A stretch of DNA of 64,000 nucleotides from Leptospiraceae bacterium (GTDB taxonomy: Bacteria; Spirochaetota; Leptospiria; Leptospirales; Leptospiraceae). The stretch spans positions 35,341 through 99,340 of the forward strand of contig JAGRNF010000008.1 of NCBI GenBank assembly GCA_020440865.1. Reading direction: 5' to 3'. A program made the translations under genes and the position numbers. The notes under the pieces were generated by a model. That model searched no databases, had not been told where the DNA came from, and saw only the letters and a program-made list of their open reading frames with translations. The stretch's first letter is position 1. Every line of letters begins with the position of its first letter. This document shows positions 2,623 through 52,933 of this stretch, piece after piece.

Positions 2623-5259
2623 ATGATAAAACGAATTGTACTTTTAGTTTGTCTGTTTTTTTTCTATATTTTTCCTATCCACTCAAAAGCAAATCTCACT
2701 TTCTGGGATATCAAAGGGAATGTTCAGGAGCTTCATATCAATGAGAAAACTGTATTCAGCTCCAAAACCCCCCTCACTGAAATTCCAAAAAATCTGAGTC
2801 CATCCGATAAAATTGACTTTGGATTCTATGTAGGTGAGTACTTTATCCTGAAGTCCGAGAGCGAAAATTTTTCTAATCTCCTCACCCTTTTGAATTCAGA
2901 GGGGAAAGAGTATCAACTCCTAACCAATCTTCTGGTTTACTATTGGGAATTAGAAAAAGGAGAGTCCAAAAAAGCAGAAGCTCAGCTGGATTCTTACATT
3001 CAATCCGAATCTTCAGAAGCCCATTCACACATGGCAGCTCTGATCAAACAATTTACCGACAAAAAAACCAATTATTCACTGAATAAATCTGACATCCAAA
3101 AACTGAGCTGTTTAAAAGCTGAAAATTATATGAATCTTTGCCGGGTCATCAAATTTCGACTGGGTCTTGAGTTAGTAATCGAATCGGATAGCAATACTCA
3201 TAGGCACTACACAGACCTGGACAGAGCTCTAGCTCCATTTTTTGAAGAATCAAATCTGGGATATGTCCCTTTCTTGGAAAAAGTCATCCCGGATGTATCC
3301 GCAAAATTAGCTTACATCGGAATGGCAGGTGAAGCGATTCATTTCCAAAAAATGCAATTAGAAAACGAAAAGTTATCCAATCGCTTTGAAATCATATCCT
3401 ATGAACGACTATCATTTTATCATATGTTGAATGGTGATCTCGAATCAGCTGAATCTACCCTAGATGAAGCCCTTCAAAATTTAAAAGCCACAAGCATTTT
3501 AAAAAACTCCATACTTCTCAAAGCGGGTTCTATTGCCTATCTCAGAAAAGATTACAAAAAATCCCTTAAGTACTTTACAGATTTGAATATGAAGTATTGG
3601 GGTAGGACTATGAGACATCCAATCAATGATGAGAACATTTCTCCTTATAGCGCTCGAAATCTAATTGCTTATGTCATATCCAAAGCAATCAATCCTGCCA
3701 CAGCCATCAAAGCTCTCAATAAGCTCAAAACCAAAAAGCCGGATGAAGAAGATCTTTTCATCCAATTGCGTATCGCACATATCTTATTTCCCGAAAGACC
3801 TAAGATAACCGAAAAAATCACAGACGACATTATTTACATAGCTCAGAGTAAAGGATGGAAGCGTGTTGAGTATGCAGCGACCCTCCTGAATGGCTACACC
3901 AATATCATCAATAGAAAAAATCGACGTTCTGTAATACAATTCACAAAAAGCTATGGAATTTTGGGAAAATCCGATCATAAGTTCCGATCTGAATGGATTC
4001 GACAGTCGGGAATGCTTCTCGGAAGACTCCAGGGGAAAGAAAGAGGAAGACATGACAAATCTTTCCATTCCCTCATCGAAATGATGAGAAAAAATGAATA
4101 CGACTATGACATTCTATCAGTGAATATGTTCCTGGATCGAAGATTTGGTCCGGAAGAAGTTACAGAAAAAGCCTTAGATTTTTATAGATCCAGACAGGAC
4201 TATTCTTCATTTCTATCAACTCTGTACTACAGTCAGTACATTCATTCCAGAGATTCCTTTCACAATAGTAGTCTTCTACAAATTCCTAGTGTTTTGAGAA
4301 GGCTAAAGGTTTACAAAGGTTTCCGACCTTCTATCGACAATCTTTACTTCAAGAGCAAACAGATTAAAAACCTAAAAATAGAAGCAAAAGAAATCTCAAA
4401 AAATTACAACAAGTTTGACGATAAAGTATTAAATAAGATCAAAACTCCTTTTCTGGCAGTAATTCCTTTCAATGGCAAGGTTTATGTAGTCGCTTACAAA
4501 CCGGATAGAAAAGCAAATTATCGGTGGAGTATTCTAAATTTTTCTGAAAAACAATATGGAAGTGTAGAGTACTACGAAAAAATTATTTCTTCATTTCCAT
4601 GGATAGAAGGTGACAACTCATTTCAAATTTATTTGAATCAACAGGGAGCAGAACTCTATCAAATCCTCAGAAAGAATAAGATTTCCTATAATATCAAACT
4701 GTTTTATAATTTTCAAACGAATTCAGACTCTTCTGAGACTCAATTGAATCCGGTAACTGCCGAGTGTTCTCAAACAGATAAACTTGAAAAAATCCAATAT
4801 CTCCCTTCGGATTATTTTGAAGGAACCAAAACTTTGAATCTTTCCAACACTCTCCAAATTTGGAATTTTCAGGAGTTTGATTCTAAAATTTCGGGAAGTT
4901 CAAATTCTATCGAATCCTATTCCTGGAAGTGTGGAAATTCAAATGTCCGGTTTGAAAAGTTGCAGAGAAGAGTTGATGATCGCAATCTGCCCAATGCTAT
5001 CCTGATTACAAATACCATTCTTAAGGAATCGACAAGCAGGGTTCTGGCGAAAGATTATATGAAATGGACAGATTTCTGGATGAAAAAAGGAGTCTCTACT
5101 ATTTACTTTATTGATAGATTAGAACAGGATGAAATAGGAAATGAAATTCTGGAACTCATTTCGGTAAGCAATCCGGGAAGTTCAAACTTGAACAAACTAT
5201 CCAAACTCTTAAAACAAAATAGCAGAGAAGGTGTGGTTCTAAACAGAGGACCGATCTAG
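2623..5259 (+). CDS. large secreted hypothetical protein (878 aa)
   Basis: N-terminal hydrophobic signal peptide (MIKRIVLLVCLFFFYIFPIHS). No catalytic motif recognised. Starts 19 bp after pepF. Confidence 0.55.
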   Translation: MIKRIVLLVCLFFFYIFPIHSKANLTFWDIKGNVQELHINEKTVFSSKTPLTEIPKNLSPSDKIDFGFYVGEYFILKSESENFSNLLTLLNSEGKEYQLLTNLLVYYWELEKGESKKAEAQLDSYIQSESSEAHSHMAALIKQFTDKKTNYSLNKSDIQKLSCLKAENYMNLCRVIKFRLGLELVIESDSNTHRHYTDLDRALAPFFEESNLGYVPFLEKVIPDVSAKLAYIGMAGEAIHFQKMQLENEKLSNRFEIISYERLSFYHMLNGDLESAESTLDEALQNLKATSILKNSILLKAGSIAYLRKDYKKSLKYFTDLNMKYWGRTMRHPINDENISPYSARNLIAYVISKAINPATAIKALNKLKTKKPDEEDLFIQLRIAHILFPERPKITEKITDDIIYIAQSKGWKRVEYAATLLNGYTNIINRKNRRSVIQFTKSYGILGKSDHKFRSEWIRQSGMLLGRLQGKERGRHDKSFHSLIEMMRKNEYDYDILSVNMFLDRRFGPEEVTEKALDFYRSRQDYSSFLSTLYYSQYIHSRDSFHNSSLLQIPSVLRRLKVYKGFRPSIDNLYFKSKQIKNLKIEAKEISKNYNKFDDKVLNKIKTPFLAVIPFNGKVYVVAYKPDRKANYRWSILNFSEKQYGSVEYYEKIISSFPWIEGDNSFQIYLNQQGAELYQILRKNKISYNIKLFYNFQTNSDSSETQLNPVTAECSQTDKLEKIQYLPSDYFEGTKTLNLSNTLQIWNFQEFDSKISGSSNSIESYSWKCGNSNVRFEKLQRRVDDRNLPNAILITNTILKESTSRVLAKDYMKWTDFWMKKGVSTIYFIDRLEQDEIGNEILELISVSNPGSSNLNKLSKLLKQNSREGVVLNRGPI

Positions 5260-5267
5260 GAAGAAAA

Positions 5268-5528
5268 CTAGAGAGAAAAAGCTGATGAAATCACATTTCT
5301 AAGATCAGATTCGATTTCTTTGGGATCAATGTTTGTATTCAGGCATTGTTGCATATGCTCTTCCACATAAGCCTGTCCGAATTTTTTAAGGGCGTTGGTA
5401 GCAGCTTTTAATAATTGAATGTTTTTCTTGCAGTCAGATGGCTGATCGATCAAATTTCTCTTGATTGCTTCTATCTGCCCTTGGATTCTGTTTAGTCTAT
5501 GGATGAGTTCTGTTTGATTCATGCACAT
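5268..5528 (-). CDS. CsoR/RcnR-family (DUF156) metal-sensing transcriptional repressor
   Basis: 86 aa. The family signature LIHRLNRIQGQIEAIKRNL matches. Cys around residue 33 plus H-x3-C (HMQQC) is arranged like the Cu(I) ligands C36/H61/C65 of CsoR. Confidence 0.65.
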   Translation of the reverse strand: MCMNQTELIHRLNRIQGQIEAIKRNLIDQPSDCKKNIQLLKAATNALKKFGQAYVEEHMQQCLNTNIDPKEIESDLRNVISSAFSL

Positions 5529-5595
5529 ACCCTAAGGGGTATAGGTATCCTGTCAAGCGAAGTTTGTTGAATGTAAAAAAAAAGGAGAGATTTGA

Positions 5596-6519
5596 TTGAG
5601 TACTGCAGATACATCTGAAAAACTATCCAGATTGTCCTCACCTGATCTGGATGAGGTTCTGGGATTGCCGTTTCGGGTACTGGATGATGGTTTCATTCGG
5701 GTAATTGATTATATGGGCACAGACGAAGCTATAGTTCAGGCCGCCAGAGTTTCCTATGGAAAGGGAACCAAGAAAGTCAATGAAGACAGAGGACTGATTC
5801 GCTACCTACTCCGCCACAAGCACACAACTCCTTTTGAAATGTGTGAAATCAAATTGCATGTTCGCGTTCCCATGGACACCTGGAGACAATGGATCCGACA
5901 TAGAACAGCAAATGTGAATGAATACAGTACAAGATATTCAGTGGCAATCGATTCTTCTCAAAAAACTTCCCCCTCAGAATGGAGAAAACAATCTTCAGAC
6001 AACAAACAGGGAAGTTCCGGATTTTTCTCTCCTGAAGATGGAAAACTACTGACTGACCAGGAAAAAGAATTCCACAATCTTTCACAAAAAATTTACAACG
6101 AACGAATAGAAAAGGGAATCGCCAGAGAACAGGCAAGAAAAGATCTTCCCCTTTCCACATACACAGAAGCCTACTGGAAAGTTGACCTTCACAACCTCCT
6201 GCATTTTCTTGCTCTGAGAATGGACTCCCACGCTCAACTAGAAATCCGACAGTACGCCAGAACAATTGGTGAAGAAATTGTAAAGCGTTGGTGTCCTATC
6301 GCATGGGAAGCCTTTCAGGACTATGTTGTACATAGCTCCAGCCTTACCCGTATGGAAATGGAAATTCTCAAAGAAATCACTTCGGGAAATACTGAATCCG
6401 CCATTCAAAAAGCAATCGGTTTCGGAATGTTAAATTCTGATCGATCTGTAAAGAAAAATCGGGAACGGGAAGAACTTGAGGAAAAGCTAAAAGACCTAAA
6501 TTTAAATATTCCCTGGTAA
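5596..6519 (+). CDS. thyX: FAD-dependent thymidylate synthase ThyX
   Basis: ThyX RHR-x7-S motif (RHRTANVNEYS). TTG start with AAAGGAGAGA ribosome-binding site upstream. Confidence 0.85.
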   Translation: MSTADTSEKLSRLSSPDLDEVLGLPFRVLDDGFIRVIDYMGTDEAIVQAARVSYGKGTKKVNEDRGLIRYLLRHKHTTPFEMCEIKLHVRVPMDTWRQWIRHRTANVNEYSTRYSVAIDSSQKTSPSEWRKQSSDNKQGSSGFFSPEDGKLLTDQEKEFHNLSQKIYNERIEKGIAREQARKDLPLSTYTEAYWKVDLHNLLHFLALRMDSHAQLEIRQYARTIGEEIVKRWCPIAWEAFQDYVVHSSSLTRMEMEILKEITSGNTESAIQKAIGFGMLNSDRSVKKNREREELEEKLKDLNLNIPW

Positions 6520-9338: not shown

Positions 9339-9656
9339 AATCTGTATACAGTTTTATGAAATATCAAAAGAGTAGAGTCATTTGTATAAATAAATATAAT
9401 AAGACATAATATAATATTTATTTTTTATATCGCGTTAACATTTACTCTCTATTTTTATAACTCATAGCTCTTTTTATATTTTCGAATATTCTAATTTGTT
9501 AATTGTCTAAGTATTCCTGAGAAAAATCATATTCTTTCCCGGATCAATTCCTCTCTTTCACTGTTACTGTGAGAAAAAAGACTTTTCCTTATCAAGCACT
9601 TCCAGAAATCGTATTATTAGACCCAAAATAAGAAAAGCGAAGAGGAAACGAGGATT

Positions 9657-26793: not shown

Positions 26794-28732
<1,939 letters not shown>

Positions 28733-28755: not shown

Positions 28756-29334
28756 TCAGGGAAGTACTTTCTTTTCAATCAAGTCCAAAGTACTTGCAGA
28801 AAATCTTAAGAAATATTTCTTTTGGTTTTCTGATCCTCCATCCATAGAATAAATCCAAATCAAATCAACCTGAATTTCTCCATCCTTAATCTTCCAGTTC
28901 TTTTTATAATCTTGAATCAAAGTGGAATTGTAATTTAATTTTTCAGTAACTGATTGATGAACTGCTCGATTTAGTTCTATTCCGGTTATCCATTTGTATC
29001 CCGGGAAAAACTTTTCAAGGCTGGATTTCTCTACCCTATAGAGAGTCTCCATATACATAGATTCATGTGAATCTCCCTTTGTGTATCCAAAGTACACATA
29101 TTGGCCATCTTCATATATGATTTCCCAGATTCGTCCCAGGATTTTTTTTATCCTATTTTCCATTCTTTTCTGGAAAAAAAAATCAGGATCTACCAACTCT
29201 GAAGTATTGATATTTTTTCCATTTTTCACTTCAGAAACCATGTACTTTTTCGAACAAGAAATCAATGTCATAATCCAGAGGAGTGGTATAATTATAAAAT
29301 ATTTCATATTCATTTTTTGAAATCTTTCATTCAA
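28756..29334 (-). CDS. hypothetical lipoprotein
   Basis: Signal peptide with lipobox LISC. Confidence 0.45.
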   Translation of the reverse strand: MNERFQKMNMKYFIIIPLLWIMTLISCSKKYMVSEVKNGKNINTSELVDPDFFFQKRMENRIKKILGRIWEIIYEDGQYVYFGYTKGDSHESMYMETLYRVEKSSLEKFFPGYKWITGIELNRAVHQSVTEKLNYNSTLIQDYKKNWKIKDGEIQVDLIWIYSMDGGSENQKKYFLRFSASTLDLIEKKVLP

Positions 29335-29625: not shown

Positions 29626-29661
29626 AATTTGTATAACAATAATAATGAAAAAAGAGAAGTT

Positions 29662-30165
29662 ATGAATCAATCAAAACATTCCAGAATCATAGGAATAGAT
29701 CCGGGATCACATCGCATTGGTTTTGCGATTTTAGAGAAAAATGTATCTAAAAAAATACAAATCCTAAAGTACGGTACAATTGAAATTCCTCCCAAAACTG
29801 AGTTTGGCGAAGCAATGATTCAACTCAGGAAAGAATTGATTTCTCTTGTTGATGACTTCAAACCCCAGCTAGCTAGCGTTGAAGACTTATTCTTTAGTAA
29901 AAATGTAAAAACAGCAGCAAAAGTTTTTCAATCCAGAGGTGTGATTTTACTTACTCTTGCAGAGAGAGCGATCCCGATTCTTGAACCTACTGTGAGTCAA
30001 ATAAAGAAAGGTGTCACAACCTCAGGAAAAGCGGATAAGAATCAAATAAAATCATCTTTAAAACTTCTACTTCAAATTGAAGATCTCAAGGGATTGGATG
30101 ATTCATGGGATGCTGTGGCCTGTGCCTTTGTGGGATTTTCGATGCAGGGATCTAAATTATTTTAA
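29662..30165 (+). CDS. ruvC: crossover junction endodeoxyribonuclease RuvC
   Basis: [17 protein letters not shown]-terminal RNase-H-fold motif with catalytic Asp. The ORF track starts at 29629 (MYNNNN...). The ATG at 29662 ([15 protein letters not shown]) is more plausible. Confidence 0.8.
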
Positions 30166-30218: not shown

Positions 30219-30656
30219 TTAAAAAACTTTAATTAGAGACAAAAGTTTTTTTCTTGTTGTTTCATCTTTTTCTCTTTCCGTGATACAGATTAAATTTTCC
30301 TTCCCATCTAGATGATTTTTCTTACTTTCAACAACTTTTGGAATAATGATATTTGTATCCAAATCCAATCTAATTTTTGAAATTCGATTTTTGGAATATT
30401 TATTTATATTTTGAATCAATAAATTGGATACAAACTGAAGTTCCATCTTATAAGCTGAATTATAAACACCTATGTACAATGTATCACGAATAATTTTCTT
30501 TGGCTTAGAAAATTTATAAAACTCCAAACCAACTATATCTTTCCAGTGATCGGATATCGCACGAAATTCTACCTCAGATTTTAATTTCTCAAAATCTATC
30601 TCTAATTTACTTAATAAACTAGAAAAATCATCAGATTCCATATCAAACGAATTCAT
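30219..30656 (-). CDS. DUF721 (DciA-like) protein
   Basis: 145 aa directly downstream of recF with overlapping stop and start. DUF721 proteins conventionally occupy this position. Confidence 0.55.
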   Translation of the reverse strand: MNSFDMESDDFSSLLSKLEIDFEKLKSEVEFRAISDHWKDIVGLEFYKFSKPKKIIRDTLYIGVYNSAYKMELQFVSNLLIQNINKYSKNRISKIRLDLDTNIIIPKVVESKKNHLDGKENLICITEREKDETTRKKLLSLIKVF

Positions 30657-31752
30657 AATGATTCTCCTTTACCTTACCCTTATTAATTTCAAATATAGAA
30701 ATCTGGTTTCGGAAGTTTTTTAAAAAATCATCCAGACCGTCTAAATCAGTAGTTGTAAAAAAAGATTGTCCGCTTTCCATTAACAATTCCAGAAAGTAAT
30801 TTCTCCTTTTTATATCCAATTCTCGTATGACATCATCAATCAAAAGCACAGGTGTTTGATTTCTTATTTTTTTTATGTGTTTAAATTGAGCTGTTTTCAT
30901 GGCTATCACAGAACTTCTTTTTTGTCCCTGGGATCCAAATTCAGTAATATCTTTAGAATCTTTACCAATGAATAAATTGTCCCTATGAGGTCCGACTGTT
31001 GTATATCCCAATTTTAAATCCAGATGTTTTCGCTTTTGTAATTTATCCCTAAAGGATTCTTCTGAATTTACATTAGGATTGTATATGATTTCAAAAATAT
31101 CTTTCTCACCGCTTAGTATTTTGAGATTTTCCCTATAAATTTCATTGAGAGAGGCAATCACCCCGATTCTCTCTGAAATAAGAAAAATTCCTTTTTCCAC
31201 CAAAAGATTGTCCCAGGTAACCAGTTCAACTTCAGATTTAGCTTGTGATTTCAATAAAGCATTTCTATGTTTTAGTATTTTATTATATTCCAATAAATTG
31301 ATTAAATATTCACGGTTATAGATCGAAAGGAACGAATCTATAAACTTTCTCCTTTCCGCAGGACCTCCATCGATAATTTTTAAATCTATAGGGGATAGAG
31401 TAATTGTTATGAAATTTCCTATAAAATCTAATTTTCGGTTTATTTCTTTCTCGTTAAGTTTGATTTTCTTTTTCTTGGTGCCTAATTTTGTAAAGCCTAT
31501 CTCGAATTCGTCTACATCATCAGCATTCTGAATCTCTGCTTTGAGGTAATACGTATCCTTATCCCAGTTAAGTATTTCATCATCTGTATTGTCCCGAAAA
31601 CTTTTCAATGTAGAAAACATTTGAATCGCTTCCAGGAGATTTGTCTTACCTTCTCCATTCTCACCAATGAAAAAATTTAATCTGGAATTAAACTTTAATT
31701 GCACAGACTCATAATTTCTAAATGAATTGATGAGAATAGAGTTTATCTTCAT
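30643..31752 (-). CDS. recF: DNA replication and repair protein RecF
   Basis: Walker A GENGEGKTNLLEA. SMC-like signature. Overlaps dnaN by 4 bp. Confidence 0.85.
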   Translation of the reverse strand: MKINSILINSFRNYESVQLKFNSRLNFFIGENGEGKTNLLEAIQMFSTLKSFRDNTDDEILNWDKDTYYLKAEIQNADDVDEFEIGFTKLGTKKKKIKLNEKEINRKLDFIGNFITITLSPIDLKIIDGGPAERRKFIDSFLSIYNREYLINLLEYNKILKHRNALLKSQAKSEVELVTWDNLLVEKGIFLISERIGVIASLNEIYRENLKILSGEKDIFEIIYNPNVNSEESFRDKLQKRKHLDLKLGYTTVGPHRDNLFIGKDSKDITEFGSQGQKRSSVIAMKTAQFKHIKKIRNQTPVLLIDDVIRELDIKRRNYFLELLMESGQSFFTTTDLDGLDDFLKNFRNQISIFEINKGKVKENHYEFV

Positions 31753-32870
31753 AATTTCATTGGCATAACAACTGAAATATATTGTGGATCTGATGGATCT
31801 TTAAAGACAACCGGTGCATTAGAATTATTGAATTCAATTATGATTTCTTGATCTTCTATAGATTTTACTATATCTAATAAAAAATCACCTTTGAAAGCAA
31901 TAGTAGTATCTTCACCTGAATAATCCACAGGAATATTGATGTTTGCCTCAGTAGTCCCCGGAGTTGACGCATTGATATGTAAGTTATTATCATTGAATCT
32001 TAATCTTAATTGTCTGGATGGTTCTTCTGCAGCTATCAGAGCCTGACGTAGAGCTACCAAGAATTTATCTTTTGGCATCTTGATATTATTATGAGTTTCT
32101 TTGGGAATTACAGCTTCGTAGTCAGGATAATTTCCATCTATCAATTTACATAATAACTCAATCTCATTAATTTTAATATAGATTTGGTTATCAATTAAAC
32201 CTATTCTTCCTGATTCATTATGATCTATTATTTTTAAAATCTCTTTTATAGCCTTGTGAGGAATAATCACACCATTTTGAAACGGTAAGTTATTAGTAAA
32301 TTCTCTTTCTACTCTAGCTAATCTTCTACCATCTGTTCCAACTACAACTATTTTGTTTTCAAAGCTTTTGACATACAGTCCATTAAAAACAAACCTGGTG
32401 TCTTCTAGAGCAACAGAAAAAGATGTTTTCTTAATCATACTGGAGAGTGTATTACACTGAAATCCTGATGTTCTTGAATCATCTATCGTAGAGATCGTTT
32501 TGATTTCTTCTCCTCCGATTCCATTGATCATCATTTTGAAATCAACCTTGTTTTCAGCATCGGTGATTATAGTCTTAGCTGAATTTTCACCTTCATTCAC
32601 ATTTTCTAATGATGTTTCACTGAAATTAATTGCTTTCAAAATATTGCTCAACTGCTTAGCGGGAATGGATCCACTTCCAACAACATGAGTATTTGATGCT
32701 ATAGATGTTTTAATAGAGATTTCCAAATCTGTAGCTGAAATAGAAACTCTGTTTTCCTCAGCCTCCAGTTTCAAATTAGAGAGGACAGATTTTATTTCTC
32801 TAACAGTGATTACCCCTTCTACTGCAGAAATAGCTTTTTGAAAATCTCCAGTTTTGACATGGAACTTCAT
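31749..32870 (-). CDS. dnaN: DNA polymerase III beta sliding clamp
   Basis: 373 aa with the three-domain beta-clamp pattern (MKFHVKTGDFQKAI... N-terminus); operonic with recF. Confidence 0.85.
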   Translation of the reverse strand: MKFHVKTGDFQKAISAVEGVITVREIKSVLSNLKLEAEENRVSISATDLEISIKTSIASNTHVVGSGSIPAKQLSNILKAINFSETSLENVNEGENSAKTIITDAENKVDFKMMINGIGGEEIKTISTIDDSRTSGFQCNTLSSMIKKTSFSVALEDTRFVFNGLYVKSFENKIVVVGTDGRRLARVEREFTNNLPFQNGVIIPHKAIKEILKIIDHNESGRIGLIDNQIYIKINEIELLCKLIDGNYPDYEAVIPKETHNNIKMPKDKFLVALRQALIAAEEPSRQLRLRFNDNNLHINASTPGTTEANINIPVDYSGEDTTIAFKGDFLLDIVKSIEDQEIIIEFNNSNAPVVFKDPSDPQYISVVMPMKL

Positions 32871-32927
32871 AGCAAAACTCCTTATATATTTAATTTAACT
32901 TTCTTATATAGTAATAATAATTAGCGG

Positions 32928-32936
32928 TGTGTATAA
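32928..32936 (-). promoter_or_regulatory. DnaA-box-like 9-mer upstream of dnaN
   Basis: Plus-strand TGTGTATAA equals TTATACACA on the minus strand and fits TTATNCACA. It lies 58 bp upstream of the dnaN start. Confidence 0.35.
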
Positions 32937-32979
32937 GTAACTAACCCCAAGAAACTACATTTTTTTATAGAAAATATGC

Positions 32980-33067
32980 GACATATTTTTTGAAAATAAC
33001 TTTTTCAATAAACGACATAATTCGTAATCAGTATTATGTCTAAGAGACAATAAATCTTAATTATGTC
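32980..33067. repeat. four GACATAAT-type 8-mers (two per orientation) in the dnaN/pgk divergent region
   Basis: GACATATT 32980-87 sits inside the palindrome AAATATGcgaCATATTT. GACATAAT is at 33014-21. ATTATGTC is at 33033-40 and at 33060-67. Sites 2 and 3 form GACATAAT-N11-ATTATGTC. Confidence 0.45.
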
Positions 33068-33442
33068 CTATTAACACTTTGTTCACTAGAAATTTACCTA
33101 TTACAATACTTGTTTACGGACTTATTTACAGGTAAATAAAATATAACTGATATTTTCCTCTAAAATCTCTCTGAATTCTATAGGAATTAATTTAGGAAAA
33201 TCTAATGATTCTAAAAAATTATAGATTATCTGTAATATTTTTTAAGATTCAATTCACCGATATTTTTGTTTTTTTTGTCTTGTACTTAGATTCATTTTTC
33301 ATTTACTAAAATTTGAACCCGAGTTTAGAGTAATTGCTTTTCTTTTTTAGGTCATTTTTTTTACTTTGAAAGAAGAAATTTCATAACTTTTCTTATCAGA
33401 AGAAAAATAATTATTTCGAATCTTAAGGAGGATGGGAATAGG

Positions 33443-34711
33443 ATGTCCATTTCAAAAAAAACGATAAAAGATATAGATGTAAGCGGCAAAAGAGTTTTGA
33501 TGAGGGTTGATTTCAACGTACCTATAAAAAATGGAGTGATTCAGGATGATACCAGAATCAAAGCTGCTCTACCTTCGATTCAATACTTATTAGACAATGG
33601 AGCGAAATCCATAGTTTTGATGTCACATTTAGGAGATCCCAAAAAAGATTCTAAAAAAAATAAAGAGAAAGCTGAAAAATCCGGCAAAGAATTTGATGAA
33701 GCATCTTATATTGATGGTCATCATCGATTGGCCCCTATCGGATCCCATCTTTCCGGTTTGTTGAAAAAACCGGTCGAAGTTACCAAAAGTTGCATCGGGG
33801 AAGAGATAGCTCAGCTTGTAAATAATTCCTCTAATGGAGCGATTATTTTACTCGAAAATACTAGATTCCATAAGGAAGAAACTTCTAAGGAAGCGTCAGA
33901 ACGGGAAACACTAGCAAAAGAATTGATCAAATATGGTGAAGTGTATGTTAATGACGCTTTCGGAACCGCACACCGTGCACACGCTTCCACAGAAACTGTA
34001 GCCAAATATCTTCCTGCAGTAGCCGGGTTTCTAATGGAAAAAGAATTAGAATTCCTGGAAGAAAAAATTGTTAAATCACCTGCTAAACCATTTGTAGCAA
34101 TTGTTGGAGGAGCGAAAGTTTCTTCAAAAATTACAGTTATTGAAAAATTATTAGAAAAAGTCGATCGTATTATCATTGGAGGAGGAATGGCGTTTACTTT
34201 TCTCAAATCTATGGGAAAAGAAATTGGTGGTTCCCTCTGTGAAGATGATCAACTGGATGTCGCAAAGACTACATTAGAAAAAGCTAAAGAAAAAAATGTC
34301 GAATTCATTCTTCAAACTGATGCTATAGTTGCTTCCGAGTTTTCTAATGATGCAGAAACAAAAACTGTCGATATAGATAGTATCCCTTCTAACATGATGG
34401 GTTTGGACATCGGACCAAAATCTATTGAACTATTCAAAAAAGCTCTCTCCGATGCAAAGACTATTTTTTGGAATGGACCTGTAGGAGTATTCGAATTAGA
34501 GAAATTTTCAAGAGGTACTATAGAAATTGCTAATACGCTAGCAGGTGCATCCGGTGCTATCACTGTGATTGGTGGTGGGGATTCAGTTTCAGCTGTGAAC
34601 AAAGCAGGTGTTGCCGATAAAATGTCCCATATTTCTACCGGAGGAGGAGCATCTATGGAATTAGTTGAAGGTAAAGTTCTTCCGGGTGTTGCGGCTCTTA
34701 ACGACAAATAA
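33443..34711 (+). CDS. pgk: phosphoglycerate kinase
   Basis: The PGK signature regions run through the protein. A Lys/Glu-rich insert of about 25 aa sits near residues 68-95. TAAGGAGG ribosome-binding site. Confidence 0.9.
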   Translation: MSISKKTIKDIDVSGKRVLMRVDFNVPIKNGVIQDDTRIKAALPSIQYLLDNGAKSIVLMSHLGDPKKDSKKNKEKAEKSGKEFDEASYIDGHHRLAPIGSHLSGLLKKPVEVTKSCIGEEIAQLVNNSSNGAIILLENTRFHKEETSKEASERETLAKELIKYGEVYVNDAFGTAHRAHASTETVAKYLPAVAGFLMEKELEFLEEKIVKSPAKPFVAIVGGAKVSSKITVIEKLLEKVDRIIIGGGMAFTFLKSMGKEIGGSLCEDDQLDVAKTTLEKAKEKNVEFILQTDAIVASEFSNDAETKTVDIDSIPSNMMGLDIGPKSIELFKKALSDAKTIFWNGPVGVFELEKFSRGTIEIANTLAGASGAITVIGGGDSVSAVNKAGVADKMSHISTGGGASMELVEGKVLPGVAALNDK

Positions 34712-39141: not shown

Positions 39142-40121
39142 TGAATATATTAGAAATAAAGAAACTATCAGTAGATATACTTTCTCAATCTATTTACCTT
39201 CCGATTTTACAAAATATAGATATATCTATTCAAAAAGGTGAAGTTTTATCAATCGTAGGAGAATCAGGTTGTGGAAAATCCTTAACAGCTTTATCTATAA
39301 CAAAACTATTACCTGAAAAGATTACCCGATACACTAGTGGATCTATTAATTTTCTAGGTGAAGATATTCTGAATTATACCAACGAACAATTAATGAATGT
39401 ACGGGGAAAGGAAATTTCTTATATATTTCAGGATCCATTTACTTCATTAAATCCAATTAAAAAAATCAAAGATCAGATCATTGAGTCTTTTATCATTCAC
39501 ATTTCTAAGAACAAAAAGGAAGCTATCGAGAAAGCGGAGTTTTTGTTAAATAAAGTTGGAGTTAACGATATAAAAACTCGTTTAGAATCCTATCCCGGTC
39601 AAATGAGTGGAGGAATCCTCCAACGTATTTCTATAGCAATGGCGTTAATGTGTGATCCTATTCTTCTGATTGCGGATGAACCAACTTCTGCTCTGGATGT
39701 GAGTGTCCAATCGCAACTCATTGAACTATTGATGGATATAAAAAATGAGAATCAAATGTCGATTCTTTTTATATCTCATGATATTGGAGTAGTTTCAAAT
39801 ATAGCTGATAAAATCGTTGTTATGTATGCAGGACAGGTTATAGAAGAATCAAATTACTTGGATATCATCCAAAATCCTTTGCATCCTTACACTCATGCAT
39901 TGATAAACTCCATACCATCCTTAGATAAAATCAAAGATGGATCAAAACTAGAAAGTATACAGGGTATTGTTCCTGCTCCCCAGGACTACCCTCAGGGATG
40001 CCACTTCCAGGATAGATGTTCTAAATCTATAGATATATGTTCTCACAAAAAACCTGAGTATCTGTCCATAAAACATCGAAAAATTCGTTGTTTCTTGTTT
40101 GGAGATAAAAGCCATGATTAA
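39141..40121 (+). CDS. ABC transporter ATP-binding protein, OppD/DppD family
   Basis: Walker A GESGCGKS; LSGG signature; C-terminal oligopeptide-type extension with Cys cluster. Confidence 0.85.
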   Translation: MNILEIKKLSVDILSQSIYLPILQNIDISIQKGEVLSIVGESGCGKSLTALSITKLLPEKITRYTSGSINFLGEDILNYTNEQLMNVRGKEISYIFQDPFTSLNPIKKIKDQIIESFIIHISKNKKEAIEKAEFLLNKVGVNDIKTRLESYPGQMSGGILQRISIAMALMCDPILLIADEPTSALDVSVQSQLIELLMDIKNENQMSILFISHDIGVVSNIADKIVVMYAGQVIEESNYLDIIQNPLHPYTHALINSIPSLDKIKDGSKLESIQGIVPAPQDYPQGCHFQDRCSKSIDICSHKKPEYLSIKHRKIRCFLFGDKSHD

Positions 40122-41073
40122 AATTCAAAATTTATCCACACAATTTTCTCTAAAATCCAAGAATTTATTTAAAAAAAATATACTGAAAGCTGTTGAAAAA
40201 GTAAATTTAATAATTCCTAAAAATTCAGTAATGGGTTTGGTAGGTGAATCTGGATGTGGAAAATCAACCTTAGGAAGAAGTATACTTCGATTGATTGAAC
40301 CGTCAGAAGGGGAAGTTTATTTTTATGATAATGATATTCTAAAATTTACAAACAAAGAGATGTCTAGCCTAAGAAAAAAACTTCAAATTGTATTTCAGGA
40401 TCCATATTCATCTTTAAACCCTAGAATGACTATTTTTGAAATCCTTAAAGAAGGTTTGGACATTCACTATAATTATTCAAAAGCGGAATCAATAGATAAA
40501 TCTATGGATATTATAACTAGAGTTAATTTAAAAAAAGACATTCTTCAAAGATATCCGCATGAATTTTCAGGTGGTCAAAGACAAAGAATTTCCATAGCAA
40601 GGTCATTAATCTTAAATCCAGAATTTTTAGTTTGCGATGAGGTCACCTCAGCTCTAGATGTATCCAATCAAGCACAAATAATTAACCTATTAAATGAATT
40701 TAAGAAAGAGTTAAAATTATCTATATTGTTTATTAGTCATGATTTAAATATAATAAGCTATTTCTCCGATTATATTGCAGTTATGTATTTAGGAAAAATA
40801 TTAGAAGTTGGAACTAAATCAGATATTATTAATAATTCCACTCATCCATATACAAGAGCTTTGTTTTCAAGTATATTTGACATTTCTAAAAGAGGTCAAA
40901 AAGTCAATTTATTGAAAGGTGAAATACCGGGATCAATAAACAAACCAACAGGTTGTTATTTCCATACCAGGTGTCCTTATGCCAAAGAAAGATGCAGTCA
41001 TGAAGTTCCCATAGAAACTAAAATTTCAGGAACTCAATCTACTTACTGTCATTATCCTCTTAATTCTAAATGA
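40099..41073 (+). CDS. ABC transporter ATP-binding protein, OppF/DppF family
   Basis: Walker A GESGCGKST; FSGGQRQR signature; C-terminal Cys-containing extension. Confidence 0.85.
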   Translation: MEIKAMIKIQNLSTQFSLKSKNLFKKNILKAVEKVNLIIPKNSVMGLVGESGCGKSTLGRSILRLIEPSEGEVYFYDNDILKFTNKEMSSLRKKLQIVFQDPYSSLNPRMTIFEILKEGLDIHYNYSKAESIDKSMDIITRVNLKKDILQRYPHEFSGGQRQRISIARSLILNPEFLVCDEVTSALDVSNQAQIINLLNEFKKELKLSILFISHDLNIISYFSDYIAVMYLGKILEVGTKSDIINNSTHPYTRALFSSIFDISKRGQKVNLLKGEIPGSINKPTGCYFHTRCPYAKERCSHEVPIETKISGTQSTYCHYPLNSK

Positions 41074-47953: not shown

Positions 47954-49287
47954 CTTGTTATACCTTTAACTCTCTTTCAATATTTAAGACAGACTTATAA
48001 ATAAATCTATCCCGTAATTAATATCGGAAATGCCCTATGCAAGGTCAATCCAATAAATAATATTTTTTTAGAATGTGTACTTTTTTTTAATGAGACATAG
48101 TAAAAATATGGGAAAATATTGAGTTTTTTACTAAAAAATCTAATTTAAATTCTTTTCAATCAGATTGATTTTGTGCTTAAACTCCATTATTTCTTTAAAA
48201 TCTTCATGCTTCTGGTACAAACCTTCATTAGGCTTCTATTCTGTTGATAGGCAAGTATTCTATCTAAAATTGAGAAAAAATGAAGAAATTTATTTTTTCG
48301 GAATGTATCTTTTTTTTAAAATCACGACCCATTTGAAAATTTTTTAGATGTATGCACATATAGATAAGATGGTTTAAATAAAAAACAGAATGAATTTCGG
48401 TTTTTCAAAAGATCAAAAAGAAAATAATTCCAAACGGTTTGTTCAATTCATTCAAAAGTTTCTATTTGATATCCTTATTTCTTATAATTCAAATCCAGTA
48501 GCCTTTTAAATTTTCATTTTATTTCTATGCCTGTAATAGAGTGAGGTTTGGGGAAGGGTCGCTGAACTGTTCTTCTGGACCTTCCGGTTGTCTGTGAATT
48601 TCAGTTTTAGCAATTGTATTCTTAAAACTTATTGAGAGCGGGTGGAACAATCTTTTTAACACCATTCAGGTTTCATTTTAAACAGGAGAGATTTCTTCAG
48701 AATGCAAAGTCCTACTTCATCGGAAAAAATAGGATTCAAGCATTTCCATCTACTTTAGATTATTTTTCTAAGTATTGATAGTTATCCTTTTTTCTAAAAA
48801 TTCCTTCCTTCCCAATTCAGTTTCTCTCTTTTTAGCAAAATATGAATTCCTCAGTACTACCTCAAAATGGATATAGGGTGTCTTCTAAGTCGATGTACTC
48901 ATATTTTCCTTTCTGCTTTTGTAAACTAATGAAGCAATTCAATTCATCCATATTTATTTTCAAGCACTCAAAAATGAAACTTGGGTTCTTATCTGAAATC
49001 CTATTGTATTTTTCTTTAAAAGATTCGGTTACGAAATCAAGGGTCTAAAGTTTCCAATCAAAGTAGTCTCCGGTTTGGAGTGGGTGGGTTGCGTACTATT
49101 TTCTAGCTATACATCAACTTTGAATTGAATATGCAATTTGTATCTTTCTAAAGTAATCTATTATCAAGACTCCTGGAATTTTTTGTTTTTCATCACTCAG
49201 CTCCTAAAAATCCATAGAATGAAATATTTTTTGGATGTTCGGAAAGTAAAGTTCGAATGAAAGAGTGGATTTGAGTTTCTTCTATAC

Positions 49288-49380
49288 CGGTTTTCATAAA
49301 TACTTACGTATTTCTTCGTAAGGTTTGTAGCCGTTTTATAGATGATTCTTCTGTGAATGCGCAAACCTTCTGAAAATGAC
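49288..49380 (-). repeat. copy C of the ~95-bp interspersed repeat family (orphan, in non-coding gap)
   Basis: Minus strand: agtcattttcagaaggtttgcGCATTCACAGAAGAATCATCTATAAAACGGCTAC aaaccttacgaagaaatacgtaagtatttatgaaaacc. About 80% identical to copy A over about 95 bp, including the downstream leader. Confidence 0.75.
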
Positions 49381-50129
49381 TATAAATAAAAATTTTCATC
49401 TCCCTGAAAAATCATAAGATCTATTCCATCAGTCACGAATGCTTGATCTCTTCTATTATTGCAATTTGGGAATTGGTGTTTAATTTTTTTGAATTGTATC
49501 CTCTTTGTGATTTGAGGAAAATTATTTCCTCTTCTTTATTTAATGAGCAAAGATCTCTTCTGTGTTTACTCTAAAATCTTAGTTCAAGGTCAGAATGGCT
49601 GATGAAACCTAATTAGAGGCTAGGATATTTGTTCTACTAGAGAAAAGTCCTAATGCCCCTTTGCAATGAATTAGTAACTCATCCTACGCAGTATTTTATT
49701 TTTCAAATTTTTTTTAGTTTAAAATCAAAATCATTTTTTGCTAATAAATCAATAAAAATATGGGTTTAGGCGATAGCCCAAGCTGTCCGCAGGCTCCCTG
49801 CAACCTCACATTTCACTTCTTTGCGTAATGTGAGTTAGTAAACTATTTGCTGAAATTTTCGTTTCTCCGTTGATATGAGAATACCCAAAATTTGGAAAAT
49901 TTTGATATTTCGGCCTGTAGTACCCACAGGGTAGATTTTCAAGATTTTCTCTTTTTGGGGCCTTTCTCTGGAGATGGAATCTTTACTAAGAACATAAGTT
50001 TCTATTTTAAATAGAGTGAAACATAAGACTATTTCTTCCGGATGTTTCAAATCTATCAGGTTCTTTAAAATAACTCATTGGAAATTTCAAGTTCTACCGA
50101 AATTAAAAATAAAACGGTGGTGACCAGCA

Positions 50130-50450: not shown

Positions 50451-50538
50451 TATATACGACATAATATGTTTCACGTGAAACGCATTGTGTCGTCTTCAAG
50501 CTATTCTCTTTTTAAACTTAACTTACCAAGGTAGAACT

Positions 50539-51267
50539 ATGCTCACTGTTAAATATGAATTCATTTCCCGTTTTCCCGGTCTTAGCGAAGAATCCCAAAA
50601 AGAGGAATTTTGGATTCACCTCCAAAATTTTTATGAATTTTTAATTCTAAAAAATCATGAAGGTGGGTTCTTTTCTAAATCCGATTCAGATTTAATTTTA
50701 GAAAGACATATCATGGATTCCTATTTCTTTGCTGCTAAGGTTCTGGATGTTCTTCGTGTTTCACGTGAAACAGAATTCGCGGATGTAGGAACTGGACCCG
50801 GATTGCCCGGATATCTATTTTTCTTAATAGGAAAGTTTAAGAGTGTTTCCTTTATCGATTCTCAGAAGAGAAAAATGAAACATCTGGAAGAGTTTGCTAG
50901 AAATCAGAAATTACCCGGTGAACCTAGGTTTATCTATGACAGAGCAGAGAATGTAAAAAAGAAATTCGATCTTGTGAGTATGAGAGCTGCTATCCCATAT
51001 CCGTGGTCGGTGGAAGTTTGCTCTGGTTTGGTCAAACAGGGTGGATGCTTTGTTCCATATTTAGGAAAATTGAAAAATCTAGATCGTATAGAAGGTGAAA
51101 TTTTAGAAAGAATGGGATTTGATAAGCAGAGTGAATTTTCGATTCCTGAATTGAATTTTTTGGGGGAACGAAATGTAAAAGTCTTGAAAAAGAGAGTTCA
51201 GAAAGAGACAGGTAAAGCTAGACTTTGGAAAGTCATTCAAAAGGAGATTCGGGAATACAATGGGTAA
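50539..51267 (+). CDS. rsmG: 16S rRNA (guanine527-N7)-methyltransferase RsmG (GidB)
   Basis: SAM-binding VGTGPGLPG. Conserved context upstream of parA. The ORF track starts at 50485. The ATG at 50539 (MLTVKYEF) with an AAGG ribosome-binding site is more plausible. Confidence 0.8.
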
Positions 51268-52024
51268 AATTATTGCAATCAGTAATCAAAAAGGGGGCGT
51301 TGGGAAAACGACAACTTCTATAAATCTTTCCTCGAATCTCGCATCGATGGGGAAGAAAATTTTGGTAGTCGATATTGATCCTCAGGGCAATGCAGGTTCC
51401 GGTTTGGGAATCGATGTAAATCAAATTCAAAAAACAACCTATGAGGTTCTATTGAAGGAAATCTCAATAAGAGAATCAATCATCAAAACTGATTATGAAA
51501 ATTTATTTATACTCCCGGCAAATATCAATTTGAGTGGAGCTGAAATAGACCTGGCAAATGTAGAGAGAAAAGAATTTGCCCTTAAGGATGCTATTCAATC
51601 TATTAAAAATGATTTTGATTATGTTCTCATCGATTGTCCTCCATCTCTCGGACTTCTTACCTTGAATGCACTTTCCTCTGCTGATAGTGTCATAATAACT
51701 TTGCAGACAGAATACTTTGCCTTAGAGGGGCTAAGCCAACTGATGAAGATCATTTCCCTGGTTCAGGAGAATTTGAATTCCGGATTAGAGTTGGAGGGAG
51801 TTCTTCTTACAATGTATGATAAGAGGACTAATCTAGCCAACCAGGTTGCTTCAGATGTTAGACAGTACTTTCAGGAAAAAGTATTTGAAGCAATGATTCC
51901 CAGAAATATAAAACTGGGGGAAGCACCTTCGTTTGGAAAGCCTATCAATGTGTATGATACGGATGGAATAGGAGCTAAGAGTTACTTAGCTTTTGCAGAA
52001 GAGTTTATTAAAAAGAATCAGTAG
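51260..52024 (+). CDS. parA: chromosome partitioning ATPase ParA/Soj
   Basis: Deviant Walker A KGGVGKTT; 254 aa. Confidence 0.85.
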
Positions 52025-52033
52025 GAGAAAGGA

Positions 52034-52933
52034 ATGACAAAACCAAGTGTGTTGGGTAGGGGTCTGGGCAATCTCATACCGGGTGGAAATAAAAATACTT
52101 CTACTGGAATCTCGGATTCCGGATCAGGGGAAGTCAAAGATTCGAATTCTATAGAAATAAAAATATCAGAAATTCAAATGAATCCGAATCAACCCCGGAA
52201 AACTTTTTCAGCAGAAACCATTACAGAGATGGCTGAGACAATCAAAGTTCATGGATTGATACAGCCAATCATTGTGAAGAAAATCGAAAATGGTTATGAA
52301 CTGGTTGCAGGAGAGAGAAGGCTACGGGCCTGTAAGGAAGCAGGATACATTAAAATTCCCGCGATCATAAAGAACTATTCTGAGAAAGAATCAATAGAAA
52401 TTGCTCTACTGGAAAATATTCAAAGAGAAGATTTGAACCCAATTGAGCAGGCCATGGCTTACCAAACAATCTCAGAAAGATTGAATTTGAAAATTACTGA
52501 AGTGGCTACCAGACTAGGAAAGAATCGATCTACCATCGCTAATCTGATCAGACTTCTTCAACTCCCTGAAAGCGTAAAAAATTTAGTATCCTCAGGTAAG
52601 CTATCGGAAGGTCATGCCAGACCACTACTTACCATCGGAGATAAAAAGAAACTCGAAGAAGTAGCCGGAATGATCGTGGAAAAACAGATGACTGTTCGGC
52701 AAGTAGAGGATTATGTATCCGAATTAGTTGATGGCAAAAATCAGGAGAATAAAAAGATCCAAATCGATAAAGATCCATCCATCCTTGATCTAGAAGGAAA
52801 AATTAGAAATAAATTTTCGATCAAAGCTATGGTTCAGCACAATTCTAAAACTGGAAAAGGAAAGATTTCTTTGAGTTATAATGATATGGATGAATTGGAA
52901 AGGTTGATGGAAAAGATGGGAATAAAGATTTAA
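52034..52933 (+). CDS. parB: chromosome partitioning protein ParB/Spo0J
   Basis: ParB box GERRLRA; HTH; C-terminal dimerisation region. Confidence 0.85.
   Translation: MTKPSVLGRGLGNLIPGGNKNTSTGISDSGSGEVKDSNSIEIKISEIQMNPNQPRKTFSAETITEMAETIKVHGLIQPIIVKKIENGYELVAGERRLRACKEAGYIKIPAIIKNYSEKESIEIALLENIQREDLNPIEQAMAYQTISERLNLKITEVATRLGKNRSTIANLIRLLQLPESVKNLVSSGKLSEGHARPLLTIGDKKKLEEVAGMIVEKQMTVRQVEDYVSELVDGKNQENKKIQIDKDPSILDLEGKIRNKFSIKAMVQHNSKTGKGKISLSYNDMDELERLMEKMGIKI

Follow-up and report, generated by a model that had tools for sequence, protein, structure and literature searches.

A 64,000-nucleotide stretch of DNA from a Leptospiraceae bacterium (GenBank assembly GCA_020440865.1, contig JAGRNF010000008.1), here called the window, carries a 572-bp intergenic spacer (positions 32871-33442) between the beta sliding clamp gene dnaN and the divergent gene pgk, which occupies the place of dnaA. 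We propose that the dnaN-proximal part of this spacer (32875-33133) is likely to be a functional ancestral replication origin (oriC) that was kept beside dnaN after the dnaA|oriC junction broke, and that works with DnaA supplied in trans. A first-pass annotation of this DNA had reported that dnaN, recF and a DUF721 gene are intact, that pgk is divergent and that dnaA is missing upstream, and this description is confirmed by Pfam and tblastn searches over the 64 kb. The spacer was also said to be AT-rich, in agreement with its GC content of 23.8% (versus 34.6% for the window), and it ranks second in length among the intergenic gaps of the window. The suggestion in the same annotation that the spacer is an oriC is well supported by a homology profile (E=2e-24), by alignment with a published basal unwinding system (BUS) and by a cumulative skew minimum at position 33320.

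Loci containing dnaN were gathered from 56 GTDB species and several metagenome contigs (cited below by locus numbers such as L043). An nhmmer profile built from 12 other Leptospiraceae dnaN-upstream regions, with the window excluded, yields a single match in the window, which runs from 33133 to 32875 directly upstream of dnaN (85 bits). This 259-bp minus-strand block is homologous to the canonical Leptospira dnaA-dnaN intergenic region. Of the 65 Leptospiraceae dnaN loci, 59 contain a single match to the profile, directly upstream of dnaN; the Leptospira-level loci L032 and L041 and the three distant loci L058, L060 and L063 contain none. None of the 13 loci carrying a separated dnaA (L067-L079) is matched. 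Blastn searches with the block recover L014-16 with E values of 1e-24 to 7e-32, and L. interrogans (L043) with an E value of 1e-10. The motifs of the first-pass annotation are thus not peculiar to the window species, and represent the Leptospiraceae dnaA-dnaN intergenic region minus dnaA.

When the 330 bp preceding dnaN are aligned for 13 lineages, among them L. interrogans and L. borgpetersenii, a series of ordered and partly invariant blocks becomes apparent. Read towards dnaN, these are the distal DnaA boxes, TGTnAATAA-GACATAAT, ATTATTGTCTC, GAATTATGTCG, AAAAAGTTATTTTCAAA, AATGaGACATATTTC and a tandem pair of boxes, followed by a short GC spacer, a trinucleotide-periodic run and an AT-rich stretch with the ribosome-binding site of dnaN (AAGGAG, 32878-32883 in the window). 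The distal cluster of the window (33110-33139) comprises a weak box TTGTTTACG (33110-33118, plus strand), TTATTTACA (33122-33130, plus) and TTATTTACC (33131-33139, minus), of which the last two were recovered as a head-to-head pair in a repeat search. The composite TGTTAATAG-GACATAAT (33060-33076, minus; family consensus TGTnAATAAGACATAAT) consists of a DnaA-box-like 9-mer (33068-33076, the site of the box CTATTAACA) that abuts a copy of GACATAAT (33060-33067, minus). At this element the window reads AATAGGACATAAT and the others read AATAAGACATAAT; the window alone has a G in place of the A that precedes the G (consensus ATAAGACATAAT), and TAnGACATAAT is invariant in all 13 aligned sequences.

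Two further copies of GACATAAT lie at 33033-33040 (minus) and at 33014-33021 (plus), the latter aligning with the conserved block GAATTATGTCG, and a degenerate fifth copy, GACAATAA (33046-33053, plus), aligns with ATTATTGTCTC. The related GACATATT (32980-32987, plus) is located inside the palindrome AAATATG-CGA-CATATTT (32972-32988), which is the window species' variant of the block AATGaGACATATTTC and whose alignment columns ATG..CATATT are invariant. The block GTTATTTTC (32992-33000, minus), which lies within AAAAAGTTATTTTCAAAAAA, is largely invariant in the 13 aligned sequences. The first-pass annotation had counted four such 8-mers within 90 bp, two in each orientation, together with the dyad GACATAAT-N11-ATTATGTC and a palindrome. 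All of these are present, with three copies of GACATAAT and one of GACATATT spread over 88 bp. Its DnaA-box-like site is likewise found, as the minus-strand box TTATACACA at 32928-32936, 57 bp from the dnaN ATG. Next to this box lies the degenerate upstream tandem box TTAGTTACT (32936-32944, minus), which has two mismatches to TTATTTACA and aligns with L. interrogans TTATGTACA, the first box of the published tandem pair.

The positions of the boxes are also shared. On the dnaN strand, a TTATNNACA box placed between -63 and -84, with a conserved position at about -66, recurs in many of the scanned Leptospiraceae loci, the canonical L009, L036 and L043 among them. The other strand has boxes between about -205 and -260 that are likewise conserved in the family. 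Both positions are shared by genomes with and without dnaA at the origin. All of the origin blocks, boxes and spacer included, are kept in lineages that lack dnaA upstream and whose DnaN proteins are only 55-69% identical. The conservation of these blocks across deeply diverged split lineages therefore suggests long-term purifying selection after the split. Among the best named relatives of the window DnaN, an entry labelled 'MAG: Leptospiraceae bacterium' is 69% identical and Leptospira species are 53-56% identical, which places the organism among the uncultured Leptospiraceae.

Clustered DnaA boxes are thus present in the spacer, with an enrichment of canonical boxes that is modest when taken alone. 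The GACATAAT cluster, in contrast, is far beyond chance. Three exact copies are observed in the spacer against 0.026 expected (Poisson P ~3e-6), and four copies of GACATAWT give P ~3e-7.

The tandem boxes and the sequence on their dnaN side form a module that fits the published definition of the BUS. This definition (PMC8287927) calls for a box with <=2 mismatches, an optional second box with <=4, a spacer of 0-16 bp and >=3 NAN trios complementary to 5'-TTATCCACA. In the window, TTATACACA has one mismatch to TTATCCACA and two to the Leptospira motif TTATTTACA, and TTAGTTACT is also within these bounds. A GC-rich spacer CCGC (32924-32927, minus) lies between box and trios and is analogous to the CCGG spacer of B. 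subtilis and Deinococcus (PMC8287927 supplement). Four NAN trios follow after 3 or 7 nucleotides, and the published definition is permissive on this point in AT-rich DNA. With the 7-nucleotide spacing, the DnaA-trios occupy 32909-32920 of the plus strand (5'-TAG TAA TAA TAA-3', which is 3'-AAT AAT AAT GAT-5' when read away from the box), and an alternative frame at 32912-32923 reads 3'-GAT TAA TAA TAA-5' after a 3-nucleotide GC spacer (GGC). Fourfold repeats of YTA occur twice in the 64 kb versus 0.2 expected, and the copy in the spacer is located 7 nucleotides downstream of the box on the correct strand. This geometry agrees with the B. subtilis entry of the published compilation, in which a box written as 5'-TTATCCACA places the trios downstream on the complementary strand (PMC8287927).

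The BUS published for L. interrogans Lai is 3'-AATACATGT ATAAATGT C CATGATGAGGAT-5', with the species box 5'-TTATTTACA (Pelliciari et al. 2021, PMC8287927 supplement). This BUS is exactly the block TTATGTACATATTTACAGGTACTACTCCTA in L043, which aligns with TTAGTTAC-TTATACACA-CCGC-TAATTATTATTACTA of the window, such that the trios of the window align with the L. interrogans trios CAT GAT GAG GAT (PMC8287927 supplement). The most AT-rich part of the spacer, 32875-32908, adjoins the trios, overlaps the dnaN 5' leader and ribosome-binding site, and is a candidate DNA-unwinding element. The 40-bp interval 32880-32919 has the lowest GC content in the spacer (0.125), and the position of this AT-rich stretch relative to boxes and trios matches the published BUS layout. 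Unwinding would be predicted at 32875-32908. A second, leftward-facing box-trio module beside TTATTTACA at 33122-33130 is not present.

Strand asymmetry provides evidence of a different kind. The first-pass annotation had proposed a check by cumulative GC skew, and for the 64-kb window, which is the part of the replicon covered, this check favors the spacer, because the global minimum of the cumulative G-C curve at 33320 falls inside it. To part replication-linked from transcription-linked skew, G-C skew was taken at third codon positions (GC3 skew) on the plus strand. On the left of the spacer, plus-strand genes have a GC3 skew of -0.164 and minus-strand genes one of -0.105; the corresponding values on its right are +0.044 and +0.122. 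Counted by sign, 23 genes are negative and 5 positive on the left, whereas positive genes prevail on the right (22, against 8 negative; Fisher P=2.6e-5). The sign change is independent of gene orientation, and its polarity is that of an origin and not of a terminus. The gene gyrB, which is inverted and lies in the left flank, has a skew of -0.16, equilibrated to a left replichore.

For relatives, skew was assessed only within flanks of ±6-8 kb. The closest relatives with a split arrangement (L007, L013-L017) change from negative to positive skew across the block, as does canonical Leptospira. Two separated dnaA loci show no switch (+0.041 to +0.038 in L067, and -0.063 to -0.079 in L068).

The gene context of the spacer is also that of an origin. 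The cluster dnaN-recF-dciA adjoins it, gyrB is 4 kb away, and rsmG(gidB)-parA-parB lies ~17 kb to the right (50485-52933). One parS site, TGTTTCACGTGAAACG (50467-50482), has one mismatch to the consensus, and the other, TGTTTCACGTGAAACA (50757-50772), is perfect and resides inside rsmG. The rsmG-parA-parB genes and parS are classical origin-proximal markers.

The canonical dnaA-oriC-dnaN arrangement is not found in the window, as tblastn searches with Leptospiraceae DnaA detect no dnaA in the 64 kb. No remnant of a decayed dnaA was found in the spacer. Five independent metagenome contigs (L001-L004 and L006), >99.5% identical to the window, span the pgk-572 bp-dnaN junction, and therefore the arrangement is not a misassembly; a sixth contig (L005) covers only dnaN-recF-dciA-ruvC. 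The spanning contigs carry 0-3 single-nucleotide polymorphisms (SNPs) each in the spacer. One of these, at 33074 (L002 and L003; T to A in the dnaN orientation), is at the variable N of the box-like TGTTAATAG beside GACATAAT, and the other four within-species SNPs are outside the conserved blocks.

Comparisons among relatives indicate where the junction was broken. The canonical order dnaA-dnaN-recF-(dciA)-gyrB is found in all Leptospira species and in some uncultured lineages (L009, L021 and L053), and dnaN without an upstream dnaA is found in the window species and a set of relatives. The neighbors upstream of dnaN differ among the latter: a divergent pgk operon in L014-16, as in the window, OmpA in the L007 group, and other genes in L017-L020, L022 and L034. 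The separated dnaA of split relatives retains the left neighbors seen in canonical L009, namely a 106-amino acid gene on the opposite strand and then DUF8198. To its right lies an unknown protein of ~440 amino acids (L068 and L074-L077) or MlaE (L067). Only 9-107 bp, without boxes, separate the dnaA stop codon from the next, unrelated gene, and 0-2 copies of TTATNNACA and 0-1 of GACATAWT are found upstream of the separated dnaA. Because dnaA keeps its left neighbors and loses the block, the breakpoint is placed after the dnaA stop codon and before the origin block, which thereby remained with dnaN. In a DnaN neighbor-joining tree, which is a rough distance tree without support values, the split lineages are interspersed with the canonical ones. 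This interleaving, together with the different new neighbors on both sides, suggests that the dnaA|oriC junction was probably broken more than once.

Some features of these loci are recorded here as separate observations. The 106-amino acid gene has no Pfam family, lies divergently upstream of dnaA (L009 5829-6149, L067 5180-5500, L068 7233-7553 and L074 1247-1567), and is kept in both canonical and split uncultured Leptospiraceae. The ~440-amino acid conserved unknown protein follows dnaA in the split lineages with a 444-amino acid DnaA. A search of the window for the neighbors seen in relatives (the 71- and 290-amino acid genes of L015, the 106-amino acid gene beside dnaA, and OmpA) found none of them. 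In the distant metagenome-assembled genome L060, whose DnaN is 38% identical to that of the window, pgk is divergently upstream of dnaA-dnaN (2965-5739). An ancestral order pgk|dnaA|oriC, considered on this basis, was rejected because the separated dnaA genes have left neighbors of the L009 type and not pgk; for the same reason, the adjacency of pgk and the origin region in L060 is probably coincidental.

No other 8-mer is shared as widely as GACATAAT in the 340 bp preceding dnaN. It occurs in 49 of 57 Leptospiraceae loci, compared with 30 of 57 for TTATTTAC, and is better conserved than the DnaA boxes themselves. Its extended consensus is A-T-[A/G]-[A/C]-GACATA[A/T]T. The 677 kb of loci contain it in 172 exact copies, of which 93 are within 320 bp upstream of dnaN. 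The first-pass annotation had named an operator array controlling dnaN as one possibility. As a local array of this species this does not hold, since the element is family-wide at origins and is found in the dnaN-upstream regions of L. interrogans and L. borgpetersenii as well. In many cases a box is joined to it (TGTnAATAA-GACATAAT), and the other strand of this fusion, ATTATGTC-TTATTTACA, resembles the tandem pair TTATGTACA-TATTTACA.

Copies of GACATAAT are also found away from dnaN. Nearly every Leptospira (loci L023-L065) has one, oriented as dnaA, 135-405 bp upstream of dnaA, and examples upstream of dnaA are at position 2639 of L043 and position 5885 of L067. No TTATNNACA box was found in the two dnaA-upstream regions scanned (L043 and L028). 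These copies hint that GACATAAT also acts in the regulation of dnaA. In the window, additional copies with the extended consensus are present at 9403 and 50458, the latter as ATATAC-GACATAAT (50458-50465) immediately before the first parS.

We considered whether GACATAAT is a canonical DnaA box or a palindromic operator with fixed spacing, and rejected both. Only the TTAT/ATAA half is common with TTATNCACA, which rules out a canonical box, and orientation and spacing vary between species (N11 in the window versus ~N40 in pathogenic Leptospira), which rules out a fixed dimer operator. Searching the literature for GACATAAT or ATTATGTC returned only primer noise. One tentative interpretation is that GACATAAT is the site of an undescribed Leptospiraceae origin-binding activity, which could be a second, lineage-specific protein or a non-canonical mode of DnaA.

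Several observations weigh against a functional origin at 32875-33133. Canonical boxes are few: the spacer has two exact copies of TTATNNACA versus 0.13 expected (P ~0.008), and one DnaA box by itself lacks significance, as TTATNCACA occurs twice in the window against 2.7 expected (P ~0.024 for at least one in the spacer). The trio pattern carries little information in AT-rich DNA, and some relatives (the L007 group and L009) have a weaker run or one that is out of frame; thus we treat the trios as supportive and not decisive. The distant split lineages L019 and L022 have local skew without a switch at dnaN, which is equivocal. As the window shows 64 kb of the replicon, it is formally possible that the skew switches at a rearrangement breakpoint, and the left flank is richer in head-on coding sequence (17.8 kb versus 12.5 kb). 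The reference Leptospira oriC is itself a computational prediction, and the literature searched yielded no functional work on an oriC of Leptospira. DnaA binding, unwinding and the start of replication are what we infer from the observed homology, layout, skew and gene context. Finally, the dnaA of the window species was not located among the matched metagenome samples; P0128 (L075) shares a study series with two contigs of the window species without a confident assignment, and the other dnaA candidates belong to other lineages.

Alternatively, the block might serve only as a promoter or operator of dnaN, bound by DnaA or another regulator, with replication starting elsewhere, for instance beside the relocated dnaA. 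This explanation draws on the fact that dnaN has no co-directional upstream gene, so that its promoter must sit in the spacer, where a consensus-level promoter TTAAGA-16-CATAAT (33060->33033) uses one GACATAAT as its -10 element. A transcription-factor site or promoter element would likewise fit the copies of GACATAAT that precede dnaA in nearly all Leptospira, and those that precede several other genes of the window in the direction of transcription. However, the skew switches inside the spacer irrespective of gene orientation, the separated dnaA loci have neither box clusters nor a skew switch, and the layout of tandem boxes, GC spacer, trios and AT-rich stretch matches an unwinding module and not an operator. 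Copies in both orientations, at spacings that vary by species, are also unlike a fixed dimer operator or a single promoter, and we consider this explanation unlikely. Control of dnaN had been suggested in the first-pass annotation too, and part of that suggestion survives: since dnaN must now be transcribed from within the spacer, an additional role of the block in dnaN transcription is possible.

That the block is a relic, used until recently and kept by inertia or for dnaN expression after initiation moved elsewhere, is very unlikely. The absence of dnaA from the locus and the partial view of the replicon are compatible with a relic, and skew, being slow to re-equilibrate, reflects history as much as present use. 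Yet every block is kept in split lineages as deeply diverged as those described above, the skew of the inverted gyrB is already equilibrated to the left replichore, parS and parAB are still nearby, and neither the window nor the examined dnaA loci contain another box cluster. The relic status entertained by the first-pass annotation is accordingly not upheld, given a skew that switches in the spacer for genes of both orientations and blocks conserved at 55-69% DnaN identity. Its other suggestion, a relocated oriC, fails because the block is still fixed to dnaN and dnaA is the part that became unlinked. Accumulation of these motifs by chance in AT-rich intergenic DNA could be argued from the single unenriched TTATNCACA box, but this is effectively refuted by the Poisson probabilities for the GACATAAT/GACATAWT cluster (~3e-6 to 3e-7), by the profile match and by positions conserved across 50+ genomes.

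If 32875-33133 is indeed a functional origin, the following series of events can be envisioned. A rearrangement would have cut between the dnaA stop codon and the origin, leaving the ancestral dnaA-dnaN intergenic oriC on dnaN. DnaA made elsewhere in the genome would bind the distal cluster (33110-33139), CTATTAACA (33068-33076) and the tandem TTAGTTACT/TTATACACA boxes (32928-32944). An ATP-DnaA oligomer could then grow from the tandem boxes over the CCGC spacer onto the plus-strand trios (32909-32920) and open the stretch of 12.5% GC that immediately precedes the start codon of dnaN. DnaB might be loaded with the help of DciA, whose gene is two genes downstream. The GACATAAT-type elements between the box groups are conserved parts of the proposed origin, and may be bound by the initiator with low affinity or in a non-canonical manner, or else by a second origin-binding factor. 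The helicase loading of B. subtilis uses DnaD, DnaB and DnaI, unlike the window organism, which encodes DciA.

The predicted oriC of L. interrogans and other Leptospira is the dnaA-dnaN intergenic region (DoriC ORI10010077; BUS in the PMC8287927 supplement). The window shares with it homologous DNA in the same order: TTATnnACA distal boxes, TGTnAATAA-GACATAAT, GTTATTTTC, GACATATTTC, tandem boxes, trios and an AT-rich stretch, with the block ending ~40-60 bp before the dnaN ATG, as in Leptospira. It differs in having pgk on the opposite strand as its left neighbor instead of dnaA, in the proximal box (TTATACACA versus TATTTACA), in its trios (AAT/GAT after a 3- or 7-nucleotide spacer versus CAT GAT GAG GAT after one nucleotide), and in a gain of ~300 lineage-specific bp next to pgk.

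Further afield, the B. subtilis incC/BUS (Richardson et al. 2016, as cited in PMC6669920) resembles the window in its tandem boxes (5'-TTATCCACA orientation), 4-nucleotide GC cluster, complementary-strand trios and AT-rich region upstream of dnaN (PMC6669920; PMC8287927), and also in having distal boxes at a distance of a few helical turns. The two are not homologous in sequence, dnaA is adjacent in B. subtilis, and no GACATAAT-type element is present there. Origins beside dnaN and unlinked from dnaA are known among cyanobacteria, experimentally in Synechococcus elongatus PCC 7942 and by prediction in Microcystis and others, and an oriC beside dnaN with dnaA elsewhere is predicted in Sorangium cellulosum (PMC2650636, PMC7198777). 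As in the window, these lie in an intergenic region by dnaN and coincide with a shift in skew; the arrangement described here is therefore not a new kind. However, those organisms belong to unrelated phyla with other box motifs (TTTTCCACA and TTATCCCCC), whereas separation in the Leptospiraceae is recent and recurrent within one family, so that split and unsplit origins can be compared base by base. The E. coli oriC (gidA-mioC) is likewise unlinked from its initiator gene and acted on by DnaA in trans. That origin underwent a major rearrangement and has not kept the box-adjacent trio blueprint in the same way (PMC6669920), unlike the window, in which the ancestral module is intact and still beside dnaN.

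The genes around the spacer were identified with Pfam. On the minus strand, dnaN (31749-32870; the three DNA_pol3_beta domains PF00712, PF02767 and PF02768) heads a cluster with recF (30643-31752; SMC_N) and dciA (30219-30656; DciA), which corresponds to DUF721 and encodes a helicase operator antecedent to DnaC/DnaI. On the plus strand are pgk (33443-34711; PGK, E=4e-152), ruvC (29629-30165) and gyrB (26819-28732), the last of these inverted relative to dnaN. Between gyrB and dnaN-recF-dciA lie ruvC and a 192-amino acid open reading frame (ORF; 28756-29334) without a Pfam match, and gyrA does not follow gyrB in the window. As a whole, the ancestral dnaA-dnaN-recF-dciA-gyrB-gyrA cluster has been broken up in this lineage.

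The T-rich half of the spacer next to pgk (33134-33442), which holds the cumulative G-C minimum, is lineage-specific. No homologue of the ~300 pgk-proximal bp was found in any other locus compared, and no Rfam hit was obtained at E<=1. Promoter matches in this half are at the consensus level only, and the promoter and leader of pgk are presumably located here. Neither the window nor the spacer gave any hit in Rfam and tRNA scans.

Elsewhere in the window, a 2176-bp region (47954-50129, GC 0.31) has no ORF of at least 80 amino acids (the longest stop-to-stop frame being 79) and lies directly upstream of a 106-amino acid ORF and rsmG-parA-parB, which is unusually long for bacterial non-coding DNA. 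No repeats, Rfam match, DnaA boxes or GACATAWT were found in it, and as it has no skew minimum either, it was rejected as an alternative origin. A tblastn search for a decayed mnmG in this region gave no signal, a weak negative given the approximate query. The DnaA-box-like TTATGGACA and a perfect TTATCCACA (40063-40071, minus, and 40132-40140, plus) are found 60 bp apart in ABC-transporter ATPase genes, and this pair may be due to chance.

These findings fix the probable replication origin of an uncultured Leptospiraceae lineage in a clade where origin finders anchored on dnaA would search in the wrong place. The family constitutes a natural experiment, in that at each cut of the junction the whole block, which ends ~40 bp before the dnaN start codon, remained attached to dnaN. 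This favors the box-trio unwinding module over linkage to dnaA as the conserved core of bacterial origins. If true, the repeated breakage of dnaA|oriC would show that the indispensable cis-partner of the origin is dnaN with its leader, and not dnaA. The wider interest is modest and resides in the conserved GACATAAT, which is the most conserved origin motif in the Leptospiraceae, pathogenic Leptospira included, and in a recurrent breakage that always leaves oriC with dnaN.

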